Origin: Escherichia coli
Lineage (GTDB): Bacteria > Pseudomonadota > Gammaproteobacteria > Enterobacterales > Enterobacteriaceae
NCBI RefSeq assembly: GCF_003334785.1
Contig: NZ_QOWV01000026.1
DNA: 37,730 bases
Direction: 5' to 3' (one strand)
The notes below the pieces were generated by a model that was not told where the DNA came from, made no database searches, and saw only the letters and a program-made list of their open reading frames with translations. A program made the position numbers and the translations under genes. Of the stretch, positions 258 to 4,989 are shown piece after piece; position 1 is the stretch's first letter, and each line of letters starts with the position of its first letter.

Positions 258-1793
258 ATGGCTACATCAGTACAGACAGGTAAAGCTAAGCAGCTCACAT
301 TACTTGGATTCTTTGCCATAACGGCATCGATGGTAATGGCTGTTTATGAATACCCTACCTTCGCAACATCGGGCTTTTCATTAGTCTTCTTCCTGCTATT
401 AGGCGGGATTTTATGGTTTATTCCCGTGGGACTTTGTGCTGCGGAAATGGCCACCGTCGACGGCTGGGAAGAAGGTGGTGTCTTCGCCTGGGTATCAAAT
501 ACTCTGGGGCCGAGATGGGGATTTGCAGCGATCTCATTTGGCTATCTGCAAATCGCCATTGGTTTTATTCCGATGCTCTATTTCGTGTTAGGGGCACTCT
601 CCTACATCCTGAAATGGCCAGCGCTGAATGAAGACCCCATTACCAAAACTATTGCAGCACTCATCATTCTTTGGGCGCTGGCATTAACGCAGTTTGGTGG
701 CACGAAATACACGGCGCGAATTGCTAAAGTTGGCTTCTTCGCCGGTATCCTGTTACCTGCATTTATTTTGATCGCATTAGCGGCTATTTATCTGCACTCC
801 GGTGCCCCCGTTGCTATCGAAATGGATTCGAAGACCTTCTTCCCTGACTTCTCTAAAGTGGGCACCCTGGTAGTATTTGTTGCCTTCATTTTGAGTTATA
901 TGGGCGTAGAAGCATCCGCAACCCACGTCAATGAAATGAGCAACCCAGGGCGCGACTATCCGTTGGCTATGTTACTGCTGATGGTGGCGGCAATCTGCTT
1001 AAGCTCTGTTGGTGGTTTGTCTATTGCGATGGTCATTCCGGGTAATGAAATCAACCTCTCCGCAGGGGTAATGCAAACCTTTACCGTTCTGATGTCCCAT
1101 GTGGCACCAGAAATTGAGTGGACGGTTCGCGTGATCTCCGCACTGCTGTTGCTGGGTGTTCTGGCGGAAATCGCCTCCTGGATTGTTGGTCCTTCTCGCG
1201 GGATGTATGTCACAGCGCAGAAAAACCTGCTGCCAGCGGCATTCGCTAAAATGAACAAAAATGGCGTACCGGTAACGCTGGTCATTTCGCAGCTGGTGAT
1301 TACGTCTATCGCGTTGATCATCCTCACCAATACCGGTGGCGGTAACAACATGTCCTTCCTGATCGCACTGGCGCTGACGGTGGTGATTTATCTGTGTGCT
1401 TATTTCATGCTGTTTATTGGCTACATTGTGTTGGTTCTTAAACATCCTGACTTAAAACGCACATTTAATATCCCTGGTGGTAAAGGGGTGAAACTGGTCG
1501 TGGCAATTGTCGGTCTGCTGACTTCAATTATGGCGTTTATTGTTTCCTTCCTGCCGCCGGATAACATCCAGGGTGATTCTACCGATATGTATGTTGAATT
1601 ACTGGTTGTTAGTTTCCTGGTGGTACTTGCCCTGCCCTTTATTCTCTATGCTGTTCATGATCGTAAAGGCAAAGCAAATACCGGCGTCACTCTGGAGCCA
1701 ATCAACAGTCAGAACGCACCAAAAGGTCACTTCTTCCTGCACCCGCGTGCACGTTCACCACACTATATTGTGATGAATGACAAGAAACACTAA
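258..1793 (+). CDS. gadC: glutamate:GABA antiporter (APC family)
   Basis: 511-aa ORF, N-terminus [19 protein letters not shown], polytopic hydrophobic protein; position immediately downstream of gadB. Confidence 0.96.
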
Positions 1794-1923: not shown

Positions 1924-3243
1924 ATGGATATCTGCTCCCGAAACAAGAAATTAACGATTAGAAGACCAGCGATACTAGTTGCACTGGCACTTTTACTGTG
2001 TAGTTGTAAAAGCACGCCTCCAGAGTCCATGGTGACACCACCAGCAGGTTCAAAGCCACCAGCCACGACGCAACAATCGTCACAACCGATGCGTGGCATC
2101 TGGCTGGCCACGGTTTCTCGGCTCGACTGGCCACCGGTTTCCTCGGTTAACATTAGTAACCCCACCAGCCGGGCCCGTGTACAACAACAGGCGATGATCG
2201 ACAAACTGGATCATCTGCAACGTCTCGGCATAAACACGGTCTTTTTCCAGGTCAAGCCGGACGGTACCGCCCTGTGGCCATCGAAAATTTTGCCGTGGTC
2301 CGATCTTATGACCGGTAAGATTGGTGAAAATCCGGGTTACGATCCGCTGCAATTTATGCTCGACGAAGCCCACAAGCGTGGGATGAAAGTACACGCCTGG
2401 TTTAACCCCTATCGCGTATCGGTTAATACGAAGCCCAGTACTATCAGGGAACTGAATAGCACTCTGTCTCAACAACCGGCGAGCGTCTATGTGCAACACC
2501 GCGACTGGATCAGAACGTCTGGCGATCGCTTTGTCCTCGACCCGGGCATCCCTGAGGTTCAGGACTGGATCACATCAATAGTCGCAGAAGTGGTTTCCCG
2601 CTATCCCGTAGATGGCGTGCAGTTTGACGACTATTTCTATACGGAGTCACCGGGTTCACGGCTAAATGATAACGAAACGTACCGTAAATACGGAGGCGCA
2701 TTTGCGTCAAAAGCAGACTGGCGGCGCAACAATACTCAGCAGTTAATTGCAAAGGTATCGCACACCATTAAAAGCATTAAGCCGGGAGTCGAATTTGGTG
2801 TTAGCCCGGCAGGCGTGTGGCGTAACCGATCACACGATCCGCTCGGTTCCGATACCCGAGGCGCGGCAGCCTATGACGAATCCTACGCTGACACCCGTCG
2901 ATGGGTGGAACAAGGATTGCTGGATTACATTGCTCCCCAAATTTACTGGCCGTTCTCACGGAGTGCCGCGCGTTATGACGTGTTGGCAAAATGGTGGGCG
3001 GATGTCGTTAAACCGACCAGGACCCGCCTGTATATCGGTATCGCCTTCTATAAAGTGGGTGAACCTTCAAAGATAGAGCCAGACTGGATGATTAACGGCG
3101 GCGTACCGGAACTGAAAAAGCAGCTCGATCTTAACGATGCTGTGCCCGAAATTAGCGGCACCATCTTGTTCCGTGAGGACTATCTGAATAAACCGCAGAC
3201 TCAACAAGCGGTCAGCTATCTGCAAAGTCGCTGGGGCAGTTAA
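1924..3243 (+). CDS. yddW: lipoprotein, glycosyl-hydrolase-like family 10 (YddW/DigH, divisome-associated peptidoglycan glycosidase)
   Basis: 439-aa ORF; N-terminal signal with lipobox-like LLLCSC; length and sequence match my memory of YddW. Confidence 0.88.
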   Translation: MDICSRNKKLTIRRPAILVALALLLCSCKSTPPESMVTPPAGSKPPATTQQSSQPMRGIWLATVSRLDWPPVSSVNISNPTSRARVQQQAMIDKLDHLQRLGINTVFFQVKPDGTALWPSKILPWSDLMTGKIGENPGYDPLQFMLDEAHKRGMKVHAWFNPYRVSVNTKPSTIRELNSTLSQQPASVYVQHRDWIRTSGDRFVLDPGIPEVQDWITSIVAEVVSRYPVDGVQFDDYFYTESPGSRLNDNETYRKYGGAFASKADWRRNNTQQLIAKVSHTIKSIKPGVEFGVSPAGVWRNRSHDPLGSDTRGAAAYDESYADTRRWVEQGLLDYIAPQIYWPFSRSAARYDVLAKWWADVVKPTRTRLYIGIAFYKVGEPSKIEPDWMINGGVPELKKQLDLNDAVPEISGTILFREDYLNKPQTQQAVSYLQSRWGS

Positions 3244-3260
3244 ACTCCCATTCTTACTTT

Positions 3261-3296
3261 GTAACAAGCCGGTGCTTTACCCACCGGCTTGTTACC
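3261..3296 (+). terminator. stem-loop (perfect 14-bp stem) downstream of yddW; weak U-tract
   Basis: gtaacaagccggtg / ctttaccc / caccggcttgttac read directly, 18 bp after the yddW stop. Confidence 0.5.
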
Positions 3297-3606
3297 CTCT
3301 TAAACTATCCCACTAATAATCATGCTTACTTAAGTCAAATTAACCACACTTAGTTAAACAGCCATAAATCCCTAATAAAAATGTATGAATATGAAAAACC
3401 ATACGATATTCGCTGTCACCGAAAAATAATTACGATGGGCTATACTCTTCTGAAGAACAGTAGCGTAGATTGAAACTGTCCTAAATCGCTTATTTCTTTT
3501 CAGTATATCTTCATATTTCAGGAGAATATGGTGCAGTTAGTCGATCTCGCACGTTGCGTTTCATTTTGATTCCGTCTGATTTCCCAGCCTTATAAGGGTG
3601 TGAATT

Positions 3607-4989
3607 ATGGAGATGTATTTTAAAAGAATGAAAGATGAGTGGACCGGACTTGTCGAACAGGCAGATCCGCCCATTCGTGCTAAAGCCGCGGAAATTGCCG
3701 TTGCGCATGCTCATTATCTGAGTATCGAGTTTTATCGAATTGTCCGCATCGACCCGCATGCCGAAGAATTCTTGAGTAATGAACAAGTTGAGCGGCAGTT
3801 GAAGAGTGCGATGGAACGCTGGATTATTAACGTGCTTTCTGCCCAGGTTGACGATGTCGAAAGGCTAATACAAATCCAGCATACCGTCGCGGAAGTGCAT
3901 GCCCGCATAGGAATTCCGGTAGAAATTGTCGAGATGGGGTTTCGGGTGCTGAAAAAAATCCTCTATCCGGTGATCTTCTCTTCGGATTATTCCGCCGCAG
4001 AAAAACTTCAGGTCTACCATTTCTCGATTAACAGTATTGATATCGCGATGGAAGTGATGACTCGCGCGTTTACCTTTAGTGACAGTAGTGCCTCAAAGGA
4101 AGATGAAAACTATCGTATCTTCTCGTTACTGGAAAACGCCGAAGAAGAAAAAGAACGGCAAATAGCCTCAATACTTTCATGGGAAATAGATATTATCTAT
4201 AAAATCCTGCTGGATTCTGATTTAGGCAGTAGTTTGCCTTTAAGCCAGGCTGATTTTGGCCTGTGGTTTAACCATAAAGGTCGACATTATTTTAGTGGTA
4301 TTGCCGAAGTAGGCCATATCTCCCGTCTGATTCAGGATTTCGACGGTATTTTCAATCAAACCATGCGTAACACCAGAAATTTGAATAACAGAAGTCTGCG
4401 GGTGAAATTTTTATTACAGATAAGAAATACCGTATCGCAAATTATTACCTTGCTGCGTGAATTGTTTGAAGAAGTATCGCGCCACGAAGTCGGTATGGAT
4501 GTACTGACGAAATTACTTAACCGCCGTTTCCTACCGACTATCTTCAAACGCGAAATTGCCCATGCCAACCGGACCGGTACACCGCTGTCAGTGCTGATTA
4601 TTGACGTTGATAAATTCAAAGAGATCAACGATACGTGGGGCCATAACACTGGTGATGAAATTCTGCGTAAAGTCTCTCAGGCCTTTTATGACAACGTCCG
4701 CAGTAGTGATTATGTTTTCCGCTACGGGGGCGATGAATTTATCATTGTTTTGACTGAAGCTTCTGAAAACGAAACGTTACGTACCGCAGAACGTATTCGC
4801 AGTCGGGTGGAGAAAACCAAACTGAAAGCCGCAAACGGCGAAGATATTGCCCTCTCACTTTCCATCGGTGCCGCCATGTTTAATGGTCATCCTGACTATG
4901 AGCGCCTCATTCAAATAGCCGATGAAGCTCTGTATATCGCCAAAAGACGAGGTAGAAACCGTGTTGAACTCTGGAAAGCCAGTCTTTAG
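3607..4989 (+). CDS. dosC: globin-coupled diguanylate cyclase (oxygen sensor, GGDEF)
   Basis: 460-aa ORF; GGDEF motif RYGGDEFIIV present in C-terminal half; N-terminal sensor domain; followed directly by dosP. Confidence 0.94.
   Translation: MEMYFKRMKDEWTGLVEQADPPIRAKAAEIAVAHAHYLSIEFYRIVRIDPHAEEFLSNEQVERQLKSAMERWIINVLSAQVDDVERLIQIQHTVAEVHARIGIPVEIVEMGFRVLKKILYPVIFSSDYSAAEKLQVYHFSINSIDIAMEVMTRAFTFSDSSASKEDENYRIFSLLENAEEEKERQIASILSWEIDIIYKILLDSDLGSSLPLSQADFGLWFNHKGRHYFSGIAEVGHISRLIQDFDGIFNQTMRNTRNLNNRSLRVKFLLQIRNTVSQIITLLRELFEEVSRHEVGMDVLTKLLNRRFLPTIFKREIAHANRTGTPLSVLIIDVDKFKEINDTWGHNTGDEILRKVSQAFYDNVRSSDYVFRYGGDEFIIVLTEASENETLRTAERIRSRVEKTKLKAANGEDIALSLSIGAAMFNGHPDYERLIQIADEALYIAKRRGRNRVELWKASL

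Follow-up and report, generated by a model that had tools for sequence, protein, structure and literature searches.

The digH-dosC spacer of Escherichia coli: probable match to the characterised control region of the yddY-dosC-dosP operon, with a hairpin, a promoter and a translated leader

In promoters recognised by sigma-S, the -10 sequence CTATACT, with its C at position -13, is a hallmark according to the published consensus, and sigma-S itself is stabilised by the PhoP-activated anti-adaptor IraM. Ribosome profiling has shown that E. coli 5' untranslated regions (5' UTRs) may contain minimal upstream open reading frames (uORFs), either of the 'start-stop' type or two to three codons in length. 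In the leader of iraD, translation is repressed by CsrA through coupling to a short uORF (PMC5574718). The operon formed by yddY, dosC and dosP (the last two also known as dgcO and pdeO) was reported to be strongly induced in stationary phase and sigma-S-dependent (PMC6119863), and the level of dosC (yddV) mRNA rises in a csrA mutant (PMC4844966). The first member of this operon, yddY, was found by chromosomal SPA tagging (VanOrsdel et al. 2018; PMC6001520), and its product was among the least abundant of the tagged small proteins (bioRxiv 10.1101/511675). It was also one of 17 small proteins with start-site ribosome footprints raised at low Mg2+; the region upstream of yddY drives a PhoQ-dependent reporter under the same condition, and no phenotype was observed upon deletion or overexpression of the gene, in a study whose main text names neither dosC, RpoS nor IraM (PMC11429745).

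The stretch of E. coli DNA analysed here (37,730 nucleotides, called the window below) contains the same arrangement. Positions 3200-3650 are identical, base for base, to the sequence of K-12 MG1655, and the spacer sequence as well as the gene order of the yddY-dosC-dosP (dgcO-pdeO) operon are those of the K-12 RefSeq genome (NC_000913.3). Differences from the K-12 operon were thus absent from the spacer, the whole window showing a few substitutions and one length difference elsewhere. Window positions were converted to K-12 positions (NC_000913.3) by subtraction from 1570747, and the conversion was checked against the positions of digH, gadB and yddY. A query of 551 nt around the spacer was matched in 5,413 out of 5,426 complete E. 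coli genomes. Very probably, what lies between digH and dosC is a control region that has already been described, that of the yddY-dosC-dosP operon of E. coli, consisting of a hairpin, a promoter and a translated leader (Table 1); promoter, operon and small ORF are all already present in databases and literature. As a whole the window is K-12-like without being MG1655: it is 178 bp shorter at a repeated segment (18344-18555), a shortfall placed by coordinates in the fdnI-yddM spacer, and carries a handful of substitutions relative to MG1655 (for example, at 1211, 2437 and 13752).

Table 1. Coordinates of features in and around the digH-dosC spacer (window positions)
Feature	Position	Strand	Basis or remark
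gadC	258-1793	+	Gene order on window
digH (formerly yddW)	1924-3243	+	Stop codon ends at 3243
digH(yddW)-dosC intergenic spacer, 363 bp	3244-3606	+	digH stop at 3243, dosC ATG at 3607
digH 3' hairpin, 14-bp perfect stem, 7-nt loop	3261-3295	+	Fold -23.9 kcal/mol, z = -8.7
Single copy of AATTAACCAC(A/G)C	3338-3349	+	Alignments; distal, poorly conserved part of spacer
Promoter block conserved across the genus, about -80 to +14	3376-3470	+	Near-invariant columns in eight-sequence alignment
-10 element CTATACT (C at -13 plus TATACT), sigma-S type	3440-3446	+	Sequence; invariant in eight Escherichia
Transcriptional start site (TSS) of yddY-dosC-dosP mRNA	3457	+	PMC6131387, Supplementary Data 2; b1490 TSS 1567290, reverse
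dosC 5' UTR, 150 nt, 39% G+C	3457-3606	+	Mapped TSS to dosC ATG
yddY Shine-Dalgarno (SD) AGGAG, 3 nt before ATG	3520-3524	+	Sequence
yddY (b4746), 13-codon uORF	3528-3569	+	RefSeq, K-12 1567178-1567219
dosC ribosome-binding site AAGGGTG	3594-3600	+	Sequence; conserved in Escherichia
dosC (dgcO, yddV), globin-coupled diguanylate cyclase, 460 aa	3607-4989	+	
dosP (pdeO), c-di-GMP phosphodiesterase, 799 aa	5014-7413	+	Curated start

The statement in the initial annotation that dosC and dosP adjoin without a gap holds for the longest dosP ORF, the ATG of which (4990) directly abuts the dosC TAG, and fails for the curated DosP start, which lies 24 nt further downstream (5014) behind a GAGG ribosome-binding site of its own. 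The start and the surroundings of the two genes varied in a few other strains. In strain 118 (locus L006), a deletion of about 13 nt at window 3601-3616 removes the first two ATGs of dosC, and the RefSeq DosC begins at the equivalent of Met8 (453 aa), an observation that bears on the choice of start ATG in K-12. In the type strain of E. albertii (NBRC 107761; locus L017, 3001-5080), the match to DosC ends at residue 352 and DosP resumes at residue 453 a few bases further on, which indicates, as judged from the sequence, a probable internal deletion fusing or disrupting dosC-dosP. In strain MS20673 (locus L008, 4139-5015), an IS1 element is located some 45 bp beyond the end of digH, with sra as its immediate neighbour and dosCP, ddpXABCDF, osmC and bdm all missing, while in an O2:H6 strain (locus L007, 7060-7680) osmC directly follows dosP and the ddp operon is absent.

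The G+C fraction of the spacer was 0.372, compared to 0.503 for the window, and was lowest at 3297-3456 (0.32). The description of an AT-rich spacer of about 360 bp (363 bp; 37% against 50% G+C) was thereby borne out, while its description as non-coding was not, RefSeq annotating the 13 codons of yddY inside it in K-12. Only one of the 21 annotated spacers of the corresponding K-12 segment is longer, and in G+C content the spacer resembles other promoter-bearing ones (bdm-osmC, 344 bp, 0.36; narU-yddJ, 323 bp, 0.365); a further promoter-bearing spacer of that segment has 259 bp at 27% G+C. The 363-bp AT-rich spacer is real, but ordinary for a promoter-bearing spacer. With one genome taken per species, the order digH, a spacer of about 350 bp and dosC was kept in all Escherichia. 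The distal part of the spacer (3297-3375) was rich in indels across the genus in an alignment of eight sequences (four E. coli lineages, two divergent Escherichia genomes, E. whittamii and E. albertii). Within it, AATTAACCAC(A/G)C occurs in one copy in K-12 and as a tandem duplicate (an indel of 12-13 nt) in most other E. coli, and the 551-nt query spans 564 nt in many genomes. Other ORFs in the region were discarded. A 30-codon ORF (3381-3473) is not preceded by a ribosome-binding site, is for the most part outside the transcript, upstream of the TSS, and lacks its start motif in Escherichia other than E. coli, and two minus-strand ORFs (3511-3786 and 3340-3402) are mechanical ORF calls with nothing supporting either.

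The hairpin downstream of digH has a stem core (GCCGGTG/CACCGG) that is conserved across Escherichia. The stem is followed by CCUCUUAAAC, with CCUCUU in the place of a U-tract, and the hairpin was not called in a scan for the intrinsic-terminator consensus because there is no T-run after the stem. A read-through transcript from digH into dosC is listed in a study of full-length capped RNAs (PMC6131387, Supplementary Data 2). The hairpin appears terminator-like but leaky, and this stable structure would end most digH transcripts while some pass through. The 'yddW terminator' of the initial annotation thus exists as a strong G+C-rich hairpin that lacks a U-tract.

A TSS for the operon was taken from the same study, which used SMRT-Cappable-seq and reports a capped 5' end for b1490 at K-12 position 1567290 on the minus strand, corresponding to window position 3457 (PMC6131387). 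The starts of digH and gadB in the same table fall 27-28 nt before their start codons, and the table coordinates are therefore those of NC_000913.3. Position 3457 is the representative of a start cluster, given that starts within 5 bp were merged in that study, and it was obtained from late-log rather than stationary-phase cultures. Upstream of it lies an exact CTATACT, and the assignment of this -10 element to sigma-S rests on the published consensus together with the reported sigma-S dependence of the operon. The start lies 10 nt past the -10 hexamer, where 6-7 nt is usual, the exact base being uncertain as a result of the merging and of the late-log cultures. A scan with the sigma-70 consensus, a pattern that does not cover the sigma-S-type -10, produced no -35/-10 pair, and no recognisable -35 accompanies CTATACT. 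Genomic SELEX, a method of low resolution, placed a peak of RpoH holoenzyme in the digH-dosC spacer (window about 3301) and a peak of RpoS holoenzyme inside yddW/digH (about 2533), not at the mapped dosC promoter (PMC5493296). An AT-rich promoter with a conserved core at about 3376-3456, a sigma-S-type -10 element and no -35 would start transcription at about 3457. The initial annotation had proposed a stationary-phase promoter followed by a long leader: the promoter is supported by CTATACT, the mapped start and the reported regulation (PMC6119863), and the leader proved to be 150 nt long and not some 360 nt.

On the mRNA, the TSS (3457) is followed by the SD of yddY (3520-3524), its ATG (3528), located 71 nt from the 5' end, and its stop codon (ending at 3569), after which 37 nt remain to the dosC ATG (3607). 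The 150-nt leader is translated: published SPA-tag immunoblots and start-site ribosome profiling show initiation at yddY, which is driven by the strong ribosome-binding site at 3520-3524 and ends 37 nt before dosC. Such an arrangement could operate through RNA structure, with a long-range helix burying the dosC start until ribosomes on yddY open it, so that the translation of the two ORFs is coupled. In its favour, the minimum-energy fold of the K-12 leader holds a long A/U-rich helix (3490-3520 with 3601-3631) that encloses yddY and leaves the dosC AUG fully paired, and the duplex between 3480-3522 and 3590-3630 reached -23.8 kcal/mol, compared to -13.8 +/- 2.8 kcal/mol for shuffles of the upstream arm (2 out of 1,000 as good), the two segments having been chosen after the fold was seen. 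However, the leader as a whole (-43.3 kcal/mol, z = -1.67) did not fold clearly better than its shuffles. A consensus fold of seven Escherichia leaders, close in sequence and hence of low power, had compensatory changes in none of its 50 pairs and an unfavourable covariation term (+1.03), and natural substitutions in the 5' arm of the long helix break pairs. When accessibility was modelled for 19 orthologous leaders, occlusion of the dosC start region was within the range of shuffles (10% of which were as low); for E. albertii as well as strain E69 an open region was predicted, and the 14 leaders from other genera displayed no trend. In a ribosome-footprint model, the dosC AUG stayed paired when the yddY footprint was forced to be single-stranded, and the lineage of strain 118 has deleted the 3' arm of the helix together with the first dosC ATGs. 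On this balance, coupling through a long-range helix is unlikely. A functional structured leader is, judging from these models, possible but unsupported, and the structured 5' UTR that had been anticipated found no backing in the z-score, the 50 pairs or the Rfam models described below.

If the spacer held a small RNA of its own, a riboswitch (such as one for c-di-GMP) or a leader-peptide attenuator, this would be in line with the length of the spacer, which was the argument of the initial annotation, and with the presence of a translated short ORF ahead of a structural gene, as in attenuators. Yet searches with the Rfam 15 covariance models at a permissive threshold gave no match in the leader, the best match in the region (24.2 bits, against a gathering score of 50) being on the digH hairpin, and a terminator scan of 3100-3750 found no terminator-like site on either strand. 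The only hairpin candidate ahead of a T-rich run, CGCA-CGU-UGCG at 3549-3559, has four pairs. The yddY codons lack the run of one amino acid that marks attenuator leader peptides of the trpL/hisL type. A single capped 5' end falls in K-12 15672xx-15674xx (window 3248-3547) among the SMRT-Cappable-seq matches listed, and the Term-seq tables of 2021 contain no 3' ends at the locus, a weak negative considering that gadBC are also missing there. We consider any of these three elements extremely improbable: nothing in these results points to one of them, and the suggested small transcript is not upheld, with neither a terminator-like site nor an Rfam match in the leader.

The motif AGGAGA(A/G)TATG, comprising the SD and ATG of yddY, was present in every Escherichia sequence examined, while the ORF behind it varied (dosC orthologues compared using one genome per species). 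It reads MVP-, MVL- or MVR-stop in two divergent Escherichia genomes and E. whittamii, and MM-stop in E. albertii; codon 4 is TTA in E. coli, compared to TAA in other Escherichia. Within E. coli, V2L and C10R variants of the 13-codon form were seen, and allele classes were estimated from 40 evenly spaced BLAST rows. In about 8 of these 40 hits, drawn from 5,406 matching genome records, a deletion of 5 nt at window 3559-3565 (the GTTTC[A/G] region; loci L004, L088 and L090) produces a yddY of 20 codons, in which the frameshift replaces the last two residues of the 13-residue form and the TAA stop lies in CCTTATAAGG, touching the dosC ribosome-binding site. About 7 of the 40, including UPEC strain F11, lose the match at window 3561, inside yddY. 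In the O2:H6 strain, the sole genome of this type examined, a deletion that begins at 3561 leaves only the final 165 nt of dosC; the promoter remains, as does the start of yddY, an ORF of 57 codons results, and dosP is intact behind the same promoter. The deletion corresponds approximately to window 3561-4830 (locus L007, 4392-4660). Frequent absence of DosC has already been noted (PMC5635171).

The conserved start and the variable ORF bear on what yddY may be. YddY could be a trans-acting small protein (for example, in a Mg2+ stress response) that merely shares the dosCP promoter, as might be expected from the detection of the tagged protein and its PhoQ-dependent induction at low Mg2+. Against this stand a very low abundance and the lack of a phenotype upon either deletion or overexpression, as well as an amino acid sequence that, tested as a conserved small protein, was not conserved among relatives: the ORF has 2-3 codons in other Escherichia species, and roughly a fifth of the sampled E. 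coli are frameshifted to 20 aa and a sixth fused into a 57-aa ORF. That the start is kept while ORF length varies speaks against selection for the sequence of the peptide; on these comparisons, the initiation site would be maintained and the peptide not, which argues against a sequence-specific trans-acting YddY, and we regard such a protein as highly unlikely. What is left for yddY would be a cis role of ribosome loading, or neutral translation.

Under neutral translation, a strong ribosome-binding site and an ATG would have arisen by chance and be translated without consequence, their conservation reflecting the low divergence of the genus. Across Escherichia, identity over the entire leader is about 85-90%, and conservation of an 11-nt motif is correspondingly weak evidence; the low divergence within the genus therefore gives the conserved start limited weight. 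Furthermore, the sequences upstream of the dosC orthologues of Citrobacter, Kluyvera, Enterobacter, Phytobacter and Trabulsiella are unrelated and contain no uORF at the equivalent position, and no phenotype has been reported. On the other hand, nowhere does the leader vary more than in the 25 nt immediately after the yddY ATG, while the SD-ATG block varies little if at all, a pattern that fits selection on initiation rather than uniform drift. Neutral translation is accordingly a possibility to be kept in mind, if a doubtful one. On the preferred reading, what has been maintained would be the loading of ribosomes at the start of yddY rather than the peptide, and any effect of yddY on dosCP would be modest and exerted in cis.

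With yddY placed on the dosCP mRNA, the PhoQ-dependent induction of the 'yddY promoter' at low Mg2+ would be an induction of the whole dosCP operon. Matches to the PhoP box (T/G)GTTTA-N5-(T/G)GTTTA in the region had three mismatches and were confined to the minus strand at 3355-3381, about 100 nt upstream; window-wide, 36 such matches were found and 30.8 expected, that is, a chance level. The half-site-like hexamers in question (TTTTTA, GATTTA and TGTTTA, minus strand, spaced by approximately 10-11 nt) lie in a segment (3355-3381) that is not conserved outside E. coli. The low-Mg2+ induction may instead be indirect, with PhoP acting through IraM and the stabilisation of sigma-S. This IraM route to the dosCP promoter is at least as likely as direct action of PhoP, because a credible PhoP box is lacking and the promoter is of the sigma-S type.

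Taken as the control region of the operon, the spacer offers a small addition to the published picture, namely that the start of yddY is kept throughout the genus while the ORF behind it varies from lineage to lineage. As a conjecture more likely wrong than right, the genus-conserved ribosome-loading site may tune the translation or stability of dosCP mRNA; a mini-uORF of 2-3 codons may be ancestral, a TAA-to-TTA change having brought it to 13 codons; and 'yddY induction' may report the low-Mg2+ induction of the oxygen-sensing c-di-GMP module, possibly via PhoP, IraM and sigma-S. yddY is better read as a uORF of dosCP than as a free-standing small-protein gene, a reading that links its reported Mg2+/PhoQ regulation to c-di-GMP signalling. 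A mini-ORF lengthened into a detectable product of 13 residues would also be a small but clean example of how annotated 'small proteins' may come from regulatory or incidental starts. Beyond correct bookkeeping, the significance is little.

In comparison with known systems, the dosC promoter shares with sigma-S promoters that have a CTATACT -10 element and a degenerate -35 the exact CTATACT, an AT-rich spacer and the absence of a -35, and the dosCP operon is, like other operons with such promoters, reported to be sigma-S-dependent and induced in stationary phase. It differs from typical sigma-S promoters in its start 10 nt past the hexamer and in the position of the SELEX RpoS peak, which is in yddW. 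As in iraD, a short translated uORF is located on the leader of a stationary-phase-related gene. Coupling of CsrA control to the uORF on the dosC leader may be considered by analogy with iraD, the likeness consisting of the rise in dosC mRNA in the csrA mutant and of GGA motifs in the yddY SD and at the dosC start codon. Unlike the iraD uORF, yddY stops 37 nt before the dosC ATG, with neither overlap nor abutment, the 20-codon variant being the exception. Finally, like the minimal uORFs, yddY consists of an SD and ATG with a stop after 2-3 codons in E. albertii, E. whittamii and the two divergent Escherichia genomes; unlike them, the ORF in E. coli has been lengthened to at least 13 codons, with a tagged product that is detectable.
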